64,000 nt of DNA from the IMG/VR virus record IMGVR_UViG_2571042390_000001; one strand, 5' to 3'. The notes under the pieces are model-generated. The model was not told the origin of the DNA and searched no databases. It saw only the letters and a list, made by a program, of their open reading frames with translations. The position numbers and the translations under genes are program-made. The number at the start of each line of letters is the position of its first letter. Position 1 is the stretch's first letter. The stretch is from a virus (lineage: Duplodnaviria > Heunggongvirae > Uroviricota > Caudoviricetes). Shown in pieces: positions 1-36,928 of the stretch.

Positions 1-670
1 CACTAACAGCACGTCTGAAGTGCTGGCCGCTACACCGAAAGCTGTCAAGGCTGCATATGACCTGGCTAACGGAAAACAACCGGCAGATGCCACGCTCACT
101 GCTCTGGCAGGACTTGCCACTGCAGCAGATCGGTTGCCTTATTTTACCGGAGCAGACCGCGCAGCGCTGGCAACCCTTACAGCTATTGGTCGCGCTATTA
201 TCGCTAAGGGCAGTATAAAAGATGTCCTCAATTACCTTGGTTTGGGGGAAGGCTCGGCGCTGCCCGTTGGTGTACCTGTTCCGTGGCCCACTGCCACACC
301 GCCAGCAGGCTGGTTAAAGTGCGACGGGCGCACCTTTACAAAAGAACAATATCCTGTTCTGGCCAGAGTCTACCCGACCCTCCGTCTTCCCGATTTACGC
401 GGTGAGTTTATCCGTGGATGGGACGACGGGCGAAAAGTGGATACAGGGCGCGATCTGCTTTCACGGCAGGATGGTACAAGTTTTTCTCATTACGCAGGTA
501 ATTTTGACATTGGGTCTGGTCATGCAATCAATAACTATGACCAAATCGTTGACAACCACCCTGGATTCTCCCGTTTTTCATTTGCAGGTCCTTCGCGAGG
601 CGATGGGGTTAATTTTGTGACCATTCGTCCCCGTAACATTGCGTTTAATTACATCGTAAGGGCGGCATAG
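1..670 (+). CDS. Tail-fibre protein, C-terminal part (cassette A); reading frame enters from upstream of the window
   Basis: Frame is open from position 2 to stop at 670. Contains the block PVGVPVPWPTATPPAGWLKCDG...RGEFIRGWDDGRKVDTGR shared with two other cassettes and the C-terminal motif RPRNIAFNYIVRAA. Confidence 0.7.
   Translation, partial: TNSTSEVLAATPKAVKAAYDLANGKQPADATLTALAGLATAADRLPYFTGADRAALATLTAIGRAIIAKGSIKDVLNYLGLGEGSALPVGVPVPWPTATPPAGWLKCDGRTFTKEQYPVLARVYPTLRLPDLRGEFIRGWDDGRKVDTGRDLLSRQDGTSFSHYAGNFDIGSGHAINNYDQIVDNHPGFSRFSFAGPSRGDGVNFVTIRPRNIAFNYIVRAA
227..252. other. Candidate Cin/Gin-type crossover site 1 (cix-like), inside the tail-fibre reading frame
   Basis: Reverse complement reads TTCCCCCAAACCAAGGTAATTGA, resembling the AAACC-NN-GGTTT core of Hin/Gin/Cin sites; sits at the start of the conserved cassette block. 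Confidence 0.4.
237..440 (+). repeat. Conserved cassette 5' block, copy 1 of 3 (about 200 bp)
   Basis: Near-identical DNA to 675-880 and, inverted, 2085-2290; a roughly 90-nt core (aaagaacaatatcctgttctggccagagtctacccgaccctccgtcttcccgattt...) is almost invariant. Confidence 0.8.
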
Positions 671-689
671 AAACGTTGGTTTGGGGGAA
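664..689. other. Candidate cix-like crossover site 2
   Basis: Core aaacgttggttt; reverse complement TTCCCCCAAACCAACGTTTCTATGCC; same orientation as site 1. Confidence 0.4.
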
Positions 690-880
690 GGCTCTGCATT
701 GCCTGTTGGTGTACCGGTTCCATGGCCCACCGCCACACCGCCAGCAGGCTGGTTACAGTGCAACGGAGCTACGTTCACCAAAGAACAATATCCTGTTCTG
801 GCCAGAGTCTACCCGACCCTCCGTCTTCCCGATTTGCGCGGTGAGTTTATCCGTGGATGGGACGGTGGTCGCAAGGTTGA
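675..880 (+). repeat. Conserved cassette 5' block, copy 2 of 3
   Basis: Direct repeat of 237-440. Confidence 0.8.
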
Positions 881-1142
881 TACCGGGCGTGCGCTACTTT
901 CATTTCAGGAAGGGACTATCGTATCCGGTTTTGATGATAATGATACCGGAGATATCAGTTCGCTCGGCTCTACACAATACGGATTTGGTGACGCTTTAAC
1001 CTCTAATCAACTGGGGGTCTTAAATGGCAAAAAGTGGATATTTGATGCATCCTCTAAAGGTGCACGAAGATATGACTGGTGGGCTTATGTATCAGCTCGC
1101 CCCCGCAATATCGCATTTAACTATATCGTGAGGGCGGCGTGA
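681..1142 (+). CDS. Promoterless alternative tail-fibre C-terminal cassette B
   Basis: Begins in frame inside crossover site 2 (GEGSALPVGVPVPWPTATPPAGWLQCNG...) and ends with RPRNIAFNYIVRAA; no own start context. Confidence 0.55.
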   Translation: MGEGSALPVGVPVPWPTATPPAGWLQCNGATFTKEQYPVLARVYPTLRLPDLRGEFIRGWDGGRKVDTGRALLSFQEGTIVSGFDDNDTGDISSLGSTQYGFGDALTSNQLGVLNGKKWIFDASSKGARRYDWWAYVSARPRNIAFNYIVRAA

Positions 1143-1148
1143 TACCGT

Positions 1149-1763
1149 TCAACTGGCAAGTGCCAGTGGTGCTTCCGGCCAGCTGATTTCAGGTGCCGTG
1201 CTGATATCCAGTGCGTTCAGCTCGTCGATATAATCCAGCACGGCGTTCAGTTTTGCCGTTTCTTCTGGTGTCAGACTGCGACCAGCACGCAGTTTGAGGT
1301 TGATAAGATCGACGGACGCCATCGCCTGTTTCACCCGTTGCTGGCGTTGCTGTCTGGCAACCTCCAGTTCTGCGGTTCGCTGCCGTTCAGTATCGGTTAC
1401 CCACGCCTCACCGTTCCAGGTATCCCATGGCGTGGCTGGCTGTTTTGTGGTGGTGTCCGCCGGGTAATCACCCGGTTGGGTAATCAGAACGGGGTTACCG
1501 TTCTCCGTGCTGTATACCGTCTCGCCGCGGTGATCAGGCACATGCTCCCACCCGTTCAGCGTGGCAGTCCGGCAAACCACGTAACCCGAAATTGCCTCCG
1601 GCGGTGCATCGGCGCACGAATGTGCCGGAGTACCCACCCCAAGGGCGAGATACTCCACAGAGGATGAGGTGTATTCCCGGGTTTCCTCGTCATAGTGATA
1701 TACAGTGATATCGCCCGCTACAGTGGCGATACCGTTTTCATCCAGAACTGCAGTGTTACTCAT
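1149..1763 (-). CDS. Tail fibre assembly protein (Tfa / Mu gpU-like)
   Basis: 204 aa; typical Tfa architecture with variable N-terminus and conserved C-terminal region (LNAVLDYIDELNALDISTAPEISWPE); immediately downstream of inverted cassette C. Confidence 0.8.
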   Translation of the reverse strand: MSNTAVLDENGIATVAGDITVYHYDEETREYTSSSVEYLALGVGTPAHSCADAPPEAISGYVVCRTATLNGWEHVPDHRGETVYSTENGNPVLITQPGDYPADTTTKQPATPWDTWNGEAWVTDTERQRTAELEVARQQRQQRVKQAMASVDLINLKLRAGRSLTPEETAKLNAVLDYIDELNALDISTAPEISWPEAPLALAS

Positions 1764-2245
1764 TAAACTGCCCTCACAATGTAATTAAGTGCAATGCTAC
1801 GGGGTCTGACAGTGATACCCTTCGCATACCCGCTTCTGATAGAGGTCAGAATAGTAGCCTGCATACCATTGTCTGACATTACTATGACAGGATCGCTGAA
1901 TGTTGTCCCGTCCGGCATTTTAAAGCTGCCCTCACGAAGGTCTGTAATGGAATCTTCATTGTTGAATCCCATGCCGACTATCCCCGAGGTTCCCGTAGTG
2001 TCCTGGTTATAATAATCCAGCATTGCTGTTCTTAACAGCGTTGCCCCTTGTGCGGACAGCAACTTACGTCCTGTATCAACTTTGCGCCCGTCATCCCATC
2101 CACGGATAAACTCACCGCGTAAATCGGGAAGACGGAGGGTCGGGTAGGCTCTGGCCAGAACAGGATATTGTTCTTTTGTAAAGGCGCGCCCGTCGCACTT
2201 TAACCAGCCTGCTGGCGGTGTGGCGGTGGGCCACGGAACAGGCAC
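1763..2245 (-). CDS. Alternative tail-fibre C-terminal cassette C (inverted orientation)
   Basis: Starts with the same conserved block (PVPWPTATPPAGWLKCDGRAFTKEQYPVLARAYPTLRLPDLRGEFIRGWDDGRKVDTGR) and ends RPRSIALNYIVRAV; conserved coding continues upstream through site 3. Confidence 0.6.
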   Translation of the reverse strand: MPVPWPTATPPAGWLKCDGRAFTKEQYPVLARAYPTLRLPDLRGEFIRGWDDGRKVDTGRKLLSAQGATLLRTAMLDYYNQDTTGTSGIVGMGFNNEDSITDLREGSFKMPDGTTFSDPVIVMSDNGMQATILTSIRSGYAKGITVRPRSIALNYIVRAV

Positions 2246-2290
2246 ACCAACGGGTAGCGCCGAGCCTTCTCCTAAACCAACGTTTATCTC
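2085..2290 (-). repeat. Conserved cassette 5' block, copy 3 of 3 (inverted)
   Basis: Reverse-complement copy of 237-440 and 675-880. Confidence 0.8.
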
Positions 2291-2293
2291 TCA
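2268..2293. other. Candidate cix-like crossover site 3 (inverted relative to sites 1 and 2)
   Basis: Plus strand TTCTCCTAAACCAACGTTTATCTCTC; 54 bp upstream of the invertase start codon. Confidence 0.45.
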
Positions 2294-2346
2294 AATCCTC
2301 CCCACATTATCTCAGTACTTTAACCACTCAAAAGGGAGTATTTTTA

Positions 2347-2919
2347 ATGCTGATTGGCTACATACGTGTGTCAACAAATGACCAAAACACAGATTTGCAA
2401 CGCAATGCATTAATGTGCGCAGGATGTGAACAGATTTTTGAGGACAAAATGAGCGGAACCAAGTCGGAACGACCAGGCCTGAAACGCGCTTTAAAGTGCC
2501 TTAAAAGAGGGGATACATTGGTGGTCTGGAAGCTGGATCGGTTGGGTAGAAGAATGAAACACCTCATTGCTCTCACAGAAGAGTTACGCGCAAAAGGTGT
2601 CAATTTTCGCAGTCTGACGGATTCAATCGATACCAGCACTCCGATGGGAAGGTTCTTTTTTCATATGATGGGTGCACTGGCAGAAATGGAGCGTGAACTG
2701 ATAGTTGAGCGCACGCTGGCAGGACTGGCTGCTGCGCGAGCACAAGGAAGAGTTGGAGGACGTCGCCCGAAACTGACGAAGGAGCAGCATGAGCAGATCG
2801 CAAGATTGCTCCAGAAAGGGTATGACAGAAAGCGGCTGGCAATTATCTATGATATTGGACTGTCAACGATCTACCGCTATCACCCTGTTGGGACTGTCAT
2901 AACGCAACCTGAAATGTAA
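2347..2919 (+). CDS. cin: Serine DNA invertase (Cin/Gin/Hin/Pin family)
   Basis: 190 aa starting MLIGYIRVSTNDQNTDLQRNAL with catalytic serine context and C-terminal HTH (GYDRKRLAIIYDIGLSTIYRY); RBS aagggag upstream of ATG 2347. Confidence 0.9.
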   Translation: MLIGYIRVSTNDQNTDLQRNALMCAGCEQIFEDKMSGTKSERPGLKRALKCLKRGDTLVVWKLDRLGRRMKHLIALTEELRAKGVNFRSLTDSIDTSTPMGRFFFHMMGALAEMERELIVERTLAGLAAARAQGRVGGRRPKLTKEQHEQIARLLQKGYDRKRLAIIYDIGLSTIYRYHPVGTVITQPEM

Positions 2920-3135
2920 TTCTTTTTCAAATAATGAAACGCCGCGTGGATGCCATTTATCGCACAAGATAGAGTGCATTTATCGCGCGGCGCATCATCA
3001 TTTGTTGATATGCGAATGTATCCAATAAGCATATGTCTCCCTTGTATGCTAAGGATACGATCCTAGAAGATGTCCTGTAAGGAAATAACAAACTGACTAA
3101 GTTAGTGGCGCATTAGATGTTATTTCTGGAGGGGT

Positions 3136-3462
3136 ATGTTTGCAGATTATGAAAATCTGGCTGTAGTAGTCATAACATCCCTACTAAGTGGAACCGGCGT
3201 ATTCCTTCTCGGAGTTAGAGACGGGCGCATTTCTGCGTCCCTGCTCAATCTTGCGAGTGAATTGTTTACTGCGGTAACAGCCGGGCTTGCGGGGTATGGG
3301 GTGGCGGTTAGCCAAGAATGGCCTGAAGGTATCATTTTCTGCGTTGTTCTGATTGCCAGTAACAACGGTAGTGAAATTTTACAGGGCTTGAAGTCCAGAG
3401 CTAGTTACGTCTTGAATCTCTTAAGCGTAATAGCGAATGGGGGAAAAGGTGGAGAGAAATAA
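3136..3462 (+). CDS. Holin-like membrane protein (LydA-like by size and position)
   Basis: 108 aa with three hydrophobic segments; first gene of a plus-strand operon after the invertase. Confidence 0.45.
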   Translation: MFADYENLAVVVITSLLSGTGVFLLGVRDGRISASLLNLASELFTAVTAGLAGYGVAVSQEWPEGIIFCVVLIASNNGSEILQGLKSRASYVLNLLSVIANGGKGGEK

Positions 3463-3908
3463 TGGGTAACTTTGGAAATTATTTCATTTTTATCATGGCA
3501 TTTGTTGCCATCATTGACCGTTTCATTTTTCGTCGCAAGAGTGTTGAGATTTTGAGTATTGGTGACGCTGTAGTGAAAGAATCCGCTATAGCATTTCCTG
3601 TTTCGCTACGTGTTAAGCGAAGCTGGGTCAGCAATGCTCAAATCGAATATTGGTTGCAAGACCTGAAAAATCCATCTGTGGTTATTTCAGGGAAAACGCG
3701 ACCAGTTGACGCCTCAAAACGCGGTGAGAGAGAAGAGTATTTGCTCATCGATACGAAATATCTTGAGCCAACGAAGTGGGATCTGAAAGTCACATTGACT
3801 AACGGTAACTGCCGACTGAATCCGCTTTATCGCATTTTCCCTATCAATGACTGCATAGAGCGCCAGTTTACGATCGAAAAGCGTAAAGGAGACTGGGATG
3901 TCAAATAA
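3462..3908 (+). CDS. Membrane-anchored protein (LydB/antiholin-like by position)
   Basis: 148 aa, N-terminal transmembrane segment; start overlaps upstream stop. Confidence 0.3.
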   Translation: MGNFGNYFIFIMAFVAIIDRFIFRRKSVEILSIGDAVVKESAIAFPVSLRVKRSWVSNAQIEYWLQDLKNPSVVISGKTRPVDASKRGEREEYLLIDTKYLEPTKWDLKVTLTNGNCRLNPLYRIFPINDCIERQFTIEKRKGDWDVK

Positions 3909-4518
3909 GAATAATTATGTTCTTCTTAATTATGATGAGTTAAACGAAAAGGGGCTGGCAAAACTCGTCAAAGAAATCAGCAAAGGTGGTTACAAGATAG
4001 CGAGGGTGATCCCTGCAAGTAATGGCAGGAAGAAAGATGGGATCATGACGCGCACGTTTACCCTTATTGGTATTGATGAACAGACAATGGAAGTTCAGGT
4101 TAACGATACCGGTGATATATCTGGGATCAAACTGAATGGTAAAACAGTACCGTTCAAGCCAGTAAAAACAATGTCGGCTTTGGGGCAATCTCTTGCGGCT
4201 TTATTTAATCGCGGAGCAACTTCTTTCCAGAAGTCATTAGCTCGAAAACTTGCTCGTGCAGCAAAAAATATTGATGACGGAAATAAGAAGCGGCAGGGAG
4301 TTAAATCTAACGCTCAGAAATTAGCTGAAGCGAAAGAATCACGTGATGCACTCCGTGAAGATATCGCTAATGCTAACGACAAACTGTCTAAACTCCAGAG
4401 CAAGTCAGACAAAGTAATGCAAGATACGGGTAACGTTAAAGCTGCCTTGTCTCAGGAAGTAGCTAAGACACGTGCTCTTAAAGAAGAAATCGCGCGCCTG
4501 GAGGATGAGCATGATTAA
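3898..4518 (+). CDS. Hypothetical coiled-coil protein (Hdf-like position in a dar-type operon)
   Basis: 206 aa, charged C-terminal half with heptad-like repeats. Confidence 0.5.
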   Translation: MSNKNNYVLLNYDELNEKGLAKLVKEISKGGYKIARVIPASNGRKKDGIMTRTFTLIGIDEQTMEVQVNDTGDISGIKLNGKTVPFKPVKTMSALGQSLAALFNRGATSFQKSLARKLARAAKNIDDGNKKRQGVKSNAQKLAEAKESRDALREDIANANDKLSKLQSKSDKVMQDTGNVKAALSQEVAKTRALKEEIARLEDEHD

Positions 4519-6436
4519 CAATCCTTTACGAATTAATATTCAGTCTACTTTTGCTGATACGATCCCCGGCTATGTGCCAAGTCGCTGGTCTTCAGAAGAA
4601 TTAAGCGAAGATGACCTGATTTTTGAGGCGGCGACCTTAGAAGATATTGAGCTTGCCTATATGGGCAATGAAATTCTGGTTGTGTCTGACGAAGCTATGT
4701 TTGAGTCCATAACTACAACCAGAATTCGGTTAGCTCAAACAATGCGAGCTTTCGTCCGTGCGCTGAATCGTGGCCTGAATGGTACGAATATTATGGCAGG
4801 GACTGATGAAGCCGGGACCGATGAAAATGGACGTAATTGTATTGGTGGTGCGATTATCGGTCGTGTACGTCGGGTAGCTAATATCCCTGTTTTGACCGCG
4901 CAGATACCGCTTACTGACGGGCAGAGTACAAGCATAATTTTCCACTCTCCAACAGCTGACGGGGCAAAAATAAAGAGTAACGACGAGCTTGTTGCATTTC
5001 AGTTTTTACTTAATAAGCGTAACGTAACTCACGTTGTCGCCCCGATTGGTGGGAGAGATGTTTCTTTAAGCCAGGTATGCCAGGCGCTATCTAATTTGAT
5101 TGAGCGTAACAGCGAAAAATTTAAGAAAGCAAAAGAGCGCCAGGACAAAATGAAGGCAGATATTGAGAGTTATCTCAATGAAGCAGATAAACTGGCAGAA
5201 GAACGGTCAATAATGATTGATCAGGTGGACGTTGCGCAACGTGGGCTGACTGAAAAGCGTGCTGCTCTTACGGAGATGCAAAAAAAACTTGATGCCCAGA
5301 AAGCCATCAACGAGGAATTACAAGAAAAACGCGATAAATTGTTGTCTGCTAAAGGTGAAAAAACGAAGGAACGAGCGTTTAGTGACCAGCTGCGACATGT
5401 AAAACATAATCTTGCCATTGACGGAAAAACAGTGCTGGATAATGGCGCTGAAGTTAATTATATCACGTCCGGCAGTGACAATTTCGTTACGATAGTAGCA
5501 CCTGAAGGTAAATTCAGTATTGATGCCAGTGCTGTCAAAGGAGGCAGTTTGGCAGATGCTGCAACCAAATTACTTAAAGCCTACCGAGAGCATAACGCAG
5601 ATAAATATAAAGTTGATGTGTTACCAGGCCAGCAGGAAGACCCCGAACCACCACAGACAGACCCCGAGACGAACCCAGTATCACAACCAGAGAGCCAGGA
5701 TGTAGGTAAATACCACTATGCACTTCAATCTCGCCCGGCTGGTGTTGGTGCTGTGCCGGATGGAAATAAAGCCGTGCTTGATCGTCCTGACCAGGCTGAT
5801 CAGTATTACGAATATGCTCGTCACGGTATCATTACGTATGACCGTAAACTGACAGATGAAGAAGTCAGCCAGTACGAGTTGCTCTATCTTCCTGATGAAG
5901 ATGAGCTGAAAGATTTTGCAGGCCAATTGGTTGTGTCCAGCATGTCGAAACATATTGATGGCTATGTAGACCTGTTTGGCAGTGACCTGAAAACATTCAA
6001 GGCGCAAGTGAAAATTCTTTTCCGCAAAGCGTTTCCAAACGTGGCGTATCCACTTGGTGATGGGGAGAACCTTTTCATTATGGACGTGTATAACGCCCTT
6101 CAAAATCATTCAAGCGAAGTAAAAACAGAGCATGTGGTTGAGCCGGAATCACAACCACAACCAGCACCAGAACAGGAGCCGGAGCCAGAAGAAGCTGGTG
6201 AATCAGCAAGTGAAGCTGATCAGGAGGCAGATAAAGCACTGGAGTACCTGAAATCCGTGCCGGAGCAGTTTACATCCCGCGATCTGACGGTCATCAGTGC
6301 TGAACTTGATCATGTGCAGGAAGCAGCAAACGCTCTAATCAGCGCAGGTCGATACGACGAGAACGAAGCCACTGTTGGTGCAGCAGTTGACTACCTGATC
6401 AACATTCTGGCTGAAATTCAGCAGGGAGGTGCTTAA
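4511..6436 (+). CDS. Large virion-type protein, DarA-like by size and operon position
   Basis: About 642 aa; GGAGG RBS 7 nt upstream of ATG 4511; coiled-coil core and Pro/Glu-rich linkers (EDPEPPQTDPETNPVSQPESQ, EPESQPQPAPEQEPEPEE). Confidence 0.5.
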   Translation: MINNPLRINIQSTFADTIPGYVPSRWSSEELSEDDLIFEAATLEDIELAYMGNEILVVSDEAMFESITTTRIRLAQTMRAFVRALNRGLNGTNIMAGTDEAGTDENGRNCIGGAIIGRVRRVANIPVLTAQIPLTDGQSTSIIFHSPTADGAKIKSNDELVAFQFLLNKRNVTHVVAPIGGRDVSLSQVCQALSNLIERNSEKFKKAKERQDKMKADIESYLNEADKLAEERSIMIDQVDVAQRGLTEKRAALTEMQKKLDAQKAINEELQEKRDKLLSAKGEKTKERAFSDQLRHVKHNLAIDGKTVLDNGAEVNYITSGSDNFVTIVAPEGKFSIDASAVKGGSLADAATKLLKAYREHNADKYKVDVLPGQQEDPEPPQTDPETNPVSQPESQDVGKYHYALQSRPAGVGAVPDGNKAVLDRPDQADQYYEYARHGIITYDRKLTDEEVSQYELLYLPDEDELKDFAGQLVVSSMSKHIDGYVDLFGSDLKTFKAQVKILFRKAFPNVAYPLGDGENLFIMDVYNALQNHSSEVKTEHVVEPESQPQPAPEQEPEPEEAGESASEADQEADKALEYLKSVPEQFTSRDLTVISAELDHVQEAANALISAGRYDENEATVGAAVDYLINILAEIQQGGA

Positions 6437-25504: not shown

Positions 25505-25800
25505 GCAAAAAATATTATGTGAGTCTGGCGTTCGCTGACGATGCGGGGAGGACGCGGAGTATCACGTTGAGCACACCGGTTAAGGCTGTGACAGCGCCGT
25601 TAATCCGTGAAGCTCTCAGAGAGCTGGAATTGGGGGAAAACTCGGCACTGTTGTCGGTTAGTTGGTTCGGGAAAATGTCAGAGAAACAATACGTGGATGG
25701 AGTTACCCCAATAACAGTAATGAGGCTACTTTCATTGCTGCAATGGGCCATCGTACCTGTATTTATCGCGTATCTTATTTATCAGGCTGCAACACAGTAA
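25501..25800 (+). CDS. Small protein with C-terminal transmembrane helix
   Basis: About 99 aa from TTG overlapping upstream stop; C-terminus VMRLLSLLQWAIVPVFIAYLIY. Confidence 0.4.
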   Translation: MSKKYYVSLAFADDAGRTRSITLSTPVKAVTAPLIREALRELELGENSALLSVSWFGKMSEKQYVDGVTPITVMRLLSLLQWAIVPVFIAYLIYQAATQ

Positions 25801-35899: not shown

Positions 35900-36928
35900 A
35901 TGAGTGAATTAATTATCTCTGGCAGCTCCGGTGGTTTTCTGCGCAACATTGGCAAAGAGTACCAGGAGGCCGCAGAAAACTTTATGCGGTTCATGAATGA
36001 CCAGGGGGCTTATGCGCCGAATACTCTGCGCGACCTCCGGTTGGTGTTTCATTCATGGGCGCGCTGGTGTCACGCTCGCCAGCTTGCCTGGTTTCCGATC
36101 TCACCAGAAATGGCCCGCGAGTATTTTCTTCAGCTGCATGATGCCGATCTGGCTTCGACCACCATTGATAAGCACTACGCCATGCTGAATATGCTGCTTT
36201 CGCATTGTGGCCTTCCGCCACTTTCGGATGATAAAAGTGTTTCTCTGGCTATGCGGCGCATCCGGCGCGAAGCGGCAACTGAAAAAGGCGAACGAACAGG
36301 CCAGGCTATACCGCTTCGGTGGGACGATCTGAAACTGCTCGACGTCCTGTTGTCCAGGTCAGAACGGCTGGTGGACCTGCGCAACCGGGCTTTTCTCTTT
36401 GTTGCATACAATACGCTGATGCGTATGTCGGAAATCTCGCGTATTCGTGTAGGAGATCTGGACCAAACAGGTGACACTGTCACGCTACATATTTCACACA
36501 CGAAGACAATAACGACCGCCGCCGGGCTTGATAAGGTGCTTTCCCGTCGCACTACCGCTGTGCTGAATGACTGGCTGGATGTTTCCGGGCTTCGCGAACA
36601 TCCTGACGCAGTGCTGCTCCCGCCGATACACCGTAGCAATAAGGCCAGGATCACGACAACGCCCCTTACTGCACCTGCAATGGAGAAAATATTCAGCGAC
36701 GCCTGGGTGTTGCTGAATAAAAGAGATGCTACGCCAAACAAAGGAAGATACCGGACGTGGACCGGGCATAGTGCACGCGTCGGGGCCGCTATTGATATGG
36801 CTGAAAAGCAGGTGTCTATGGTGGAGATCATGCAGGAAGGAACCTGGAAGAAACCGGAAACACTTATGCGGTATCTTCGCCGTGGCGGCGTGTCTGTGGG
36901 GGCTAATAGCCGCCTGATGGATTTGTAA
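35900..36928 (+). CDS. dre: Cre-family tyrosine recombinase (Dre-like)
   Basis: 342 aa; Cre catalytic residues conserved (ISRIRVGDL, HTKTITTAAG, GHSARVGAA, GTWKKPETLMRYL); N-terminus MSELIISGSSGGFLRNIGKEYQ matches my recollection of Dre. Confidence 0.9.
   Translation: MSELIISGSSGGFLRNIGKEYQEAAENFMRFMNDQGAYAPNTLRDLRLVFHSWARWCHARQLAWFPISPEMAREYFLQLHDADLASTTIDKHYAMLNMLLSHCGLPPLSDDKSVSLAMRRIRREAATEKGERTGQAIPLRWDDLKLLDVLLSRSERLVDLRNRAFLFVAYNTLMRMSEISRIRVGDLDQTGDTVTLHISHTKTITTAAGLDKVLSRRTTAVLNDWLDVSGLREHPDAVLLPPIHRSNKARITTTPLTAPAMEKIFSDAWVLLNKRDATPNKGRYRTWTGHSARVGAAIDMAEKQVSMVEIMQEGTWKKPETLMRYLRRGGVSVGANSRLMDL

Follow-up and report, generated by a model that had tools for sequence, protein, structure and literature searches.

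Paired repeats beside the lydA operon of a D6-like phage-plasmid probably mark the orphan right end of a B3/BcepMu-type transposable phage

Results

Organisation of the region

The stretch of DNA analysed here (the window, 64,000 nucleotides) is, on sequence similarity, a D6-like phage-plasmid of the P1 family. Its first 2285 positions, which continue a feature that begins upstream of the window, form an invertible multi-cassette tail-fibre region of the transposable-phage type. The region is 86–99 % identical to prophage tail-fibre cassettes and has no similarity to D6. Within it lie three repeats of ~230 nt that are 85–93 % alike, two in direct orientation (234–477 and 673–916) and one inverted (2055–2285). 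These repeats bound alternative C-terminal cassettes of the tail fibre and a tail-fibre assembly gene, constituting a multi-cassette host-range switch that is unlike the single C segment of P1 and D6. The region is followed on the plus strand by a gene for a Gin/Pin-type serine invertase (2347–2919; Pfam Resolvase and HTH_7). Downstream lies a gene for a lydA-like holin (3136–3462), and two short direct repeats are located in the intergenic region between the two.

The exact 10-mer CATTTATCGC occurs only twice in the window, at 2954–2963 and 2977–2986, 23 nt apart from start to start. The copies can be extended to TGCCATTTATCGC (2951–2963) and TGCATTTATCGC (2975–2986), and their spacing becomes 24 nt if counted from the TGC. 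An earlier, sequence-only reading had described a direct repeat at 2951–2989, with copies 24 bp apart, between cin and a holin-like operon. The repeat itself is borne out by the exact 10-mer, and its start and the spacing from the TGC hold, while the end at 2989 lies 3 nt past the second copy. The placement is likewise correct, except that the gene taken for cin is a foreign Gin/Pin-type invertase and the native cin is present as a 12-codon stub.

Taken alone, the 10-mer repeat is statistically unremarkable and no rarer than chance. Exact direct repeats of 10 nt or more, spaced 10–40 nt, number five in the window, compared to 1.7 ± 1.1 in dinucleotide-preserving shuffles. The repeat counts as more than chance because it is conserved in related sequences. 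Exact, one-mismatch and degenerate scans of the 64-kb window did not find the motif upstream of other operons. When one mismatch is allowed, TGCATTTATCGC has two further matches, at 25758 and 45494, both overlapping mechanically listed open reading frames. The degenerate form GMGATAAATR has a single extra match. The number of additional matches corresponds to the chance level. Recurrence upstream of other late operons, suggested earlier as a check of a regulatory role, was thereby scanned for across the window, and the motif is absent there.

A sharp junction between prophage and D6-type DNA

More than a dozen E. coli plasmids of about 89–96 kb match the 351 nt around the repeats with 100 % identity. 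A BLAST search with positions 2850–3200 shows a clean split at 2997/2998. On the left, the sequence is 96–100 % identical to B3/BcepMu-type prophages, and matches to them over all of window 1–2997 have 86–99 % identity. Its sole similarity to D6 is between the two invertase genes, which are only 69 % identical at the DNA level and oppositely oriented. A search of 5,426 complete genomes found about 640 places in E. coli chromosomes with 99–100 % identity to the 3' end of the invertase gene and the 78 nt downstream. At the protein level, the invertase of the identical plasmid p1_000533 is WP_000904922.1, the same accession as in a chromosomal prophage of strain R3, and the tail-fibre assembly protein of the plasmid also shares its RefSeq accession with the R3 prophage.

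On the right, homology to D6 restarts exactly at 2998, with 99 % identity over 2998–6000. This part matches phage D6 and D6-like plasmids and includes the holin gene lydA, lydB and a darA-type operon. The minus strand from 3032 to 2998 encodes MLIGYIRISTND, with the ATG at 3032–3030. Since D6 Cin begins with MLIGYIRVSTNDQ, this segment corresponds to the first 12 codons of the native cin, cut at the junction within codon 12. The mechanically listed open reading frame 2880–3032 is the cin stub fused to 38 nonsense codons.

The other edge of the foreign segment is located inside the tail-fibre gene S, about 255–275 bp before the first base of the window (plasmid locus L005, 8292–8314). The first ~190 codons of gene S are of the D6 type (97.6 % identical) and the remainder is a repetitive tail fibre of the prophage type. 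The two homologies overlap by about 23 nt at most.

Intact relatives define the terminus of the element

Prophage homology always stops at ...GCGCATCA, which is window position 2997. The homology stop defines the last 10 nt of a transposable-phage right end, CGGCGCATCA (2988–2997, plus strand), whose terminal CA (2996–2997) is the predicted point of cleavage and joining. The foreign invertase gene is the last gene of the phage and is transcribed towards this end. Scanning IMG/VR with the last 19 nt of the end retrieved 51 loci, in which about 45 different flanks begin right after the CA; the flank seen in the window is carried by four of them. The genes that follow chromosomal copies differ by genome and include aroA, lplA, ssuB, an MFS transporter gene, an aconitate hydratase gene and others. 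The CA is thus the physical end of the element, as expected for the attR of a B3/BcepMu-type phage.

Two intact copies were delimited at both ends. In strain KE21, the element splits ssuB (locus L004, 2180–40463; 38.3 kb) and is flanked by a duplication of TCTCGA. In strain R3, it splits lplA (locus L012, 1197–38762; 37.6 kb) and the duplicated target is TCAATG. Both copies have 5'-TG...CA-3' ends and target duplications of 6 bp, and insertion of these elements has occurred at many unrelated sites. For BcepMu-related phages, TG...CA ends and TnpA-binding repeats have been described, the ends in elements with an rve transposase (PMC2628397). B3/Tn552-family transposases leave a 6-bp duplication as their footprint, and a two-arm 'B3-like' genome organisation has also been reported (PMC8705779).

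The intact relatives encode a 589-aa DDE transposase with an rve domain, examples of which are WP_269194966.1 and WP_001545516.1. It is 98.6 % identical to that of Escherichia phage PhiKM (Bcepmuvirus), 69 % to BcepMu TnpA and 57 % to B3 TnpA. An AAA+ protein of the ExeA family is encoded beside it, followed by Gam, a gp16-family (GemA-type) protein and Mor. The genome contains P2-like tail genes and is arranged in two divergent arms, as in B3-like phages. No MuA domains were detected in the transposase by Pfam, and a PDB sequence search gave no match to MuA chains. The pairing of a DDE transposase with an AAA+ partner is found in the intact relatives, of which the window holds a fragment only.

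Among the related records, PV468777.1 ('Escherichia phage Entero_P88_NC_026014(23)') was deposited as a complete phage genome and overruns the true end of the element into host aroA and serC. The record is named after P88, yet the element is a B3/BcepMu-type transposable prophage.

The repeats coincide with conserved sites at both phage ends

Seven ends from three lineages (the E. coli right end, two E. coli left ends, and both ends of BcepMu and of B3) were aligned by their terminal CA without gaps. Apart from the tip, conserved blocks are present only at nt 11–19 and 34–42 from the terminus, with the consensus WWTWTCKCR. The repeats of the window coincide with these blocks. The terminal, R1-type repeat is TGCATTTATCGCG (2975–2987, plus strand), with the family core TTTATCGCG at 2979–2987, 10 nt from the terminus. 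The inner, R2-type repeat is TGCCATTTATCGCA (2951–2964, plus strand), with the core TTTATCGCA at 2956–2964, 34–42 nt from the terminus. Both are predicted transposase-binding repeats.

The same layout is repeated in the other ends. The left end of the KE21 element has TTTATCTCA as both inner and terminal core and TGTCTGATCA as its last 10 nt. In BcepMu, the inner core, terminal core and last 10 nt are TTTATCGCG, AATATCGCG and CCGCGCTTCA at the right end, and AATATCGCG, AATATCTCA and CCTCTCTTCA at the left end. Both B3 ends follow the layout with one core mismatch each, which in the left end falls in the terminal site. The motif is therefore found inverted at the opposite end, at the same spacing and offset, with the left ends of KE21 and R3 and both BcepMu ends being exact.

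We expressed the arrangement as a regular expression of two cores 13–15 nt apart, followed by 8 nt and CA. In two prophage loci of 42–44 kb, the only matches are the two true ends, in inverted orientation. The BcepMu genome is matched at 1–42 and 36707–36748 only. In the window and the plasmid segments 1–25,500 and 80,000–92,537, the single match is 2956–2997. The pattern was composed after viewing the scanned ends, so these results show its specificity and are not an independent test. In phiE255, which had been held out, the pattern places the left end where it is expected, while the right end was not recovered from that permuted record.

Sequence variation at the right end was assessed in 19 distinct variants, aligned out of 28 distinct 90-nt ends in IMG/VR; many of them are closely related, so that the counts overstate their independence. 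The inner core TTTATC.C.C is invariant in all 19, in contrast to the freely variable 11-nt spacer and 13 nt upstream. Because the search pattern required R1, its constancy in this set is uninformative. The distance between R1 and R2 is 23 nt, and 22 nt in a few variants.

Another block, TGAAAC at 2935–2940 (58–63 nt from the terminus), is nearly invariant in the 19 diverged right ends. The B3 right end has GAAACG equally far from its terminus; no such block was seen in left ends. A third site for the transposase is one possible reading, a site for a host factor another.

Taking these observations together, we interpret the repeats as R2 and R1, the predicted sites of transposase binding at the right end (attR) of a B3/BcepMu-type transposable phage, and assign this reading a probability of about 0.88. 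Binding of the transposase is suggested by the conservation of the sites, and the sites of this phage family are called putative in the literature. The impression that the repeats look like a repeated protein-binding site, already given by the sequence alone, agrees with their conservation at the phage ends.

The invertase, the late operon and chance as alternatives

The repeats could instead belong to the invertase system, either as a crossover or accessory site or by forming a structured 3' end or terminator of the invertase transcript and so insulating the holin operon. The repeat region always travels with the invertase gene. RNA from 2915–3015 is predicted to fold with –37 kcal/mol (z = –3.85), and a 19-nt imperfect inverted repeat (2928–2946 / 2986–3004) encloses both copies. 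Against a role as crossover site, the three boundary repeats of the invertible region are unrelated in sequence, and the motif lies 670 nt outside them in direct orientation, in contrast to the cix/gix sites of Cin, Gin or Pin, which are inverted and sit at the edges of the invertible segment within the repeated tail-fibre sequence. The right ends of BcepMu and B3 carry the same sites with no invertase gene annotated alongside, and the left ends carry them at a distance from any invertase. As regards a terminator, there is no U-tract, no terminator was predicted in a scan of 2250–3250, and Rfam gave no match at a permissive threshold for 2700–3300. The outer stem of the hairpin crosses the junction into D6 DNA and so is partly accidental. 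Across the 19 diverged ends only 62.6 % of the pair cells are kept, with almost no compensatory change. A conserved RNA or DNA hairpin was rejected as the primary explanation: it is strong in one sequence, poorly kept in diverged ends and involves the D6 flank. Overall we consider a function within the invertase system improbable. Of the earlier suggestion of an invertase-associated element, what stands is that the repeats arrived on the same foreign DNA as the invertase gene; they belong to the phage terminus, and their predicted user is the DDE transposase rather than the invertase.

A regulatory site for the downstream lydA/dar-like late operon, bound by the P1-type late activator Lpa or by another regulator, had also been considered in the sequence-only reading. 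The repeats are intergenic and about 150–185 nt upstream of the holin start at 3136, as such a site might be. They are, however, absent from D6, even though its late operon and the 138 nt preceding it are otherwise 94–99 % identical, and they are foreign DNA, separated from the late operon by a recombination junction. The late promoters of P1 contain a conserved 9-bp inverted repeat bound by Lpa (PMC10695390), whereas the repeats here are direct and their motif does not recur in the 64 kb. Sigma-70-like promoter prediction over 2250–3250 gave none at the repeat region. Activation of the late operon through the repeats is very improbable on these grounds, and the proposal of a late-gene activator site does not hold.

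Closer to the holin gene, a perfect 11-nt palindrome, ACTAAGTTAGT (3096–3106), and a –10-like TTAGAT together form a candidate P1-type late promoter (3096–3118, plus strand) for the lydA-like holin operon. The element is identical in D6 and lies about 20–30 nt upstream of the holin start. With up to 2 mismatches allowed, the rest of the window shows no enrichment of the palindrome. By position, identity to D6 and analogy to P1, 3096–3118 is likely a better late-promoter candidate than the repeats.

A chance duplication of 10 nt with no past or present function, which the number of comparable repeats in the window might suggest since short-range exact 10-mer repeats are not rare, is hardly credible. 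The motif recurs with unchanged spacing and equally far from the terminus at both ends of the E. coli prophages and BcepMu, near-identically in B3, and the inner copy stays invariant across diverged right ends while its surroundings change.

Comparison with known transposable elements

The right end closely resembles those of BcepMu and B3 (Bcepmuvirus and Beetrevirus, with a Tn552-related TnpA). The ends share TG...CA termini, a 6-bp duplication and two direct cores of 9–11 nt that are 23 nt apart, the first of them 10 nt from the tip, with the arrangement inverted between left and right. The E. coli relatives further share a transposase of 57–69 % identity and the divergent two-arm genome. 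Unlike in BcepMu and B3, the copy in the window consists of one right end that stands alone, with no phage attached, in a P1/D6-type phage-plasmid. The genes closest to the end also differ, being the invertible tail-fibre cassette and invertase in the E. coli lineage, an acyltransferase gene in BcepMu and small open reading frames in B3.

Phage Mu offers a striking parallel. Its right end reads ...GCATTTATCGTGAAACGCTTTCGCGTTTTTCGTGCGCCGCTTCA, in which a related 12-mer lies 10 nt from the terminal CA and recurs 22 nt inwards of that. R2 and R1 are arranged as GCATTTATCGTG and, 22 nt on, GCGTTTTTCGTG, followed by the 10-nt tip CGCCGCTTCA, and gin is located near that end. The identical GCATTTATCG in the window and Mu falls in what we take to be the variable middle of the 22-bp MuA consensus. 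For this reason it may be a coincidence, and we treat it as a lead only. The likeness to Mu is one of kind, several transposase sites at each end building a transpososome. The differences are that no similarity to MuA is detectable by Pfam or in the PDB, that Mu has three sites per end whereas only two are clear in the window end, and that the target duplication is 6 bp as opposed to 5 bp in Mu (PMC8705779).

The small staphylococcal transposon Tn552, which is not a phage, appears similar in the layout of its ends. According to Rowland et al. (1995), its transposase reportedly binds two adjacent direct repeats of about 23 bp per end and generates 6–7-bp duplications. The transposase family of the phages is Tn552-related according to the BcepMu annotation and the literature (PMC2628397; PMC8705779).

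The foreign segment also occupies the genomic slot of the P1/D6 cin/C-segment system and has the same role, that of an invertible tail-fibre switch beside the lydA late operon. The native cin of P1 and D6 is transcribed towards the C segment and overlaps cixL. Unlike this gene, the invertase gene of the window points away from the cassettes towards lydA, as does gin in Mu.

Origin and present state of the orphan end

By analogy with Mu and Tn552, each end of the intact phage would have both of its sites bound by TnpA, which would bring the ends together in a synapse. TnpA would nick 3' of the terminal CA (window 2997) and join the end to a target cut with a 6-bp stagger. We propose that such a phage, oriented with its right end towards the lydA operon, inserted into codon 12 of cin in a D6-like phage-plasmid. 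Afterwards, a deletion between co-directional tail-fibre genes would have taken away about 35 kb of the phage as well as the native C segment and nearly all of cin. The sequence left behind would comprise a hybrid tail-fibre gene, the invertible cassettes and invertase of foreign origin, and a right end on its own. We infer the order, transposition and then deletion, from the end-points of the two homologies.

Neither the transposase gene, the TnpB gene nor other prophage DNA is present in the 64-kb window and the plasmid segments 1–25,500 and 80,000–92,537. In the same sequences, which together should cover the 92.5-kb plasmid, no second end was found by the paired-site pattern or by BLAST with the whole prophage. 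The window does not contain a functional mobile element, in the sense of two inverted ends in one replicon. Because it has no partner end and no transposase, the orphan end has most likely become an inert scar, though one that could still be bound where a cell harbours the cognate prophage as well.

Similar ends in other plasmids

In the D6-like plasmid pCUVET16-559.2 (locus L013, 3570–3663), the same right end adjoins cin 17 bp deeper, at codon 18, and the stub reads MLIGYIRISTNDQNTALL. The invertase gene has been lost from this plasmid, in which 17 bp are tandemly duplicated at the start of cin. A diverged right end, about 86 % identical, is located by a tail-fibre fragment and a decayed cin in the P1-like plasmid pNCYU-26-73-5 (locus L018, 3001–3460), with an IS3 element nearby. 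P1/D6-type plasmids thus contain at least two different junctions, and the one in pNCYU-26-73-5 is probably a third.

Remnants are also found outside this group. The IncI plasmid pNDM5_LS003 (locus L020, 2488–3140) contains the invertase, identical in protein sequence, and the end in its shufflon/pil region next to pilN. An IncF plasmid of Enterobacter (E. kobei; locus L019, 924–1583) carries another solitary remnant of invertase plus right end. The junctions in different plasmids could represent independent insertions, or secondary deletions beside the end of one ancestral insertion.

Discussion

The sites described here are themselves of a known kind, the terminal transposase-binding repeats of Mu-like phages, and the mechanism is ordinary. 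The modest novelty lies in where they are found, at an orphan end within a P1/D6-type phage-plasmid that marks the exchange of a host-range cassette. A limited literature search found no published account of a hybrid phage-plasmid with an orphan end.

The findings correct the local annotation: the gene read as cin encodes a foreign invertase, only 12 codons are left of the real cin, and the candidate late promoter lies elsewhere. They are also of practical use for the chromosomal relatives. Prophage predictors currently overrun the ends of these common E. coli prophages, which are delimited precisely by the 42-nt end signature of two WWTWTCKCR cores, 8 nt and CA.

Exchange mechanisms of this kind usually leave little trace (PMC10879196), and a junction that falls precisely on the terminal CA is an uncommon fingerprint of mechanism. 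This suggests the transfer of a host-range cassette out of an integrative transposable phage and into a phage-plasmid, with transposition as the first step and deletion as the second. More tentatively, and at somewhat less than even odds, B3/BcepMu-type phages may insert repeatedly in the dispensable cin/C-segment region of P1/D6-type phage-plasmids. Deletion between tail-fibre genes would then hand over the entire host-range module, consisting of tail-fibre tips, assembly proteins and the invertase, and each event would leave an orphan right end. A bolder corollary is that the transposase of a co-resident prophage could still use such an end as its substrate, and that the end could in this way promote plasmid–chromosome fusions.
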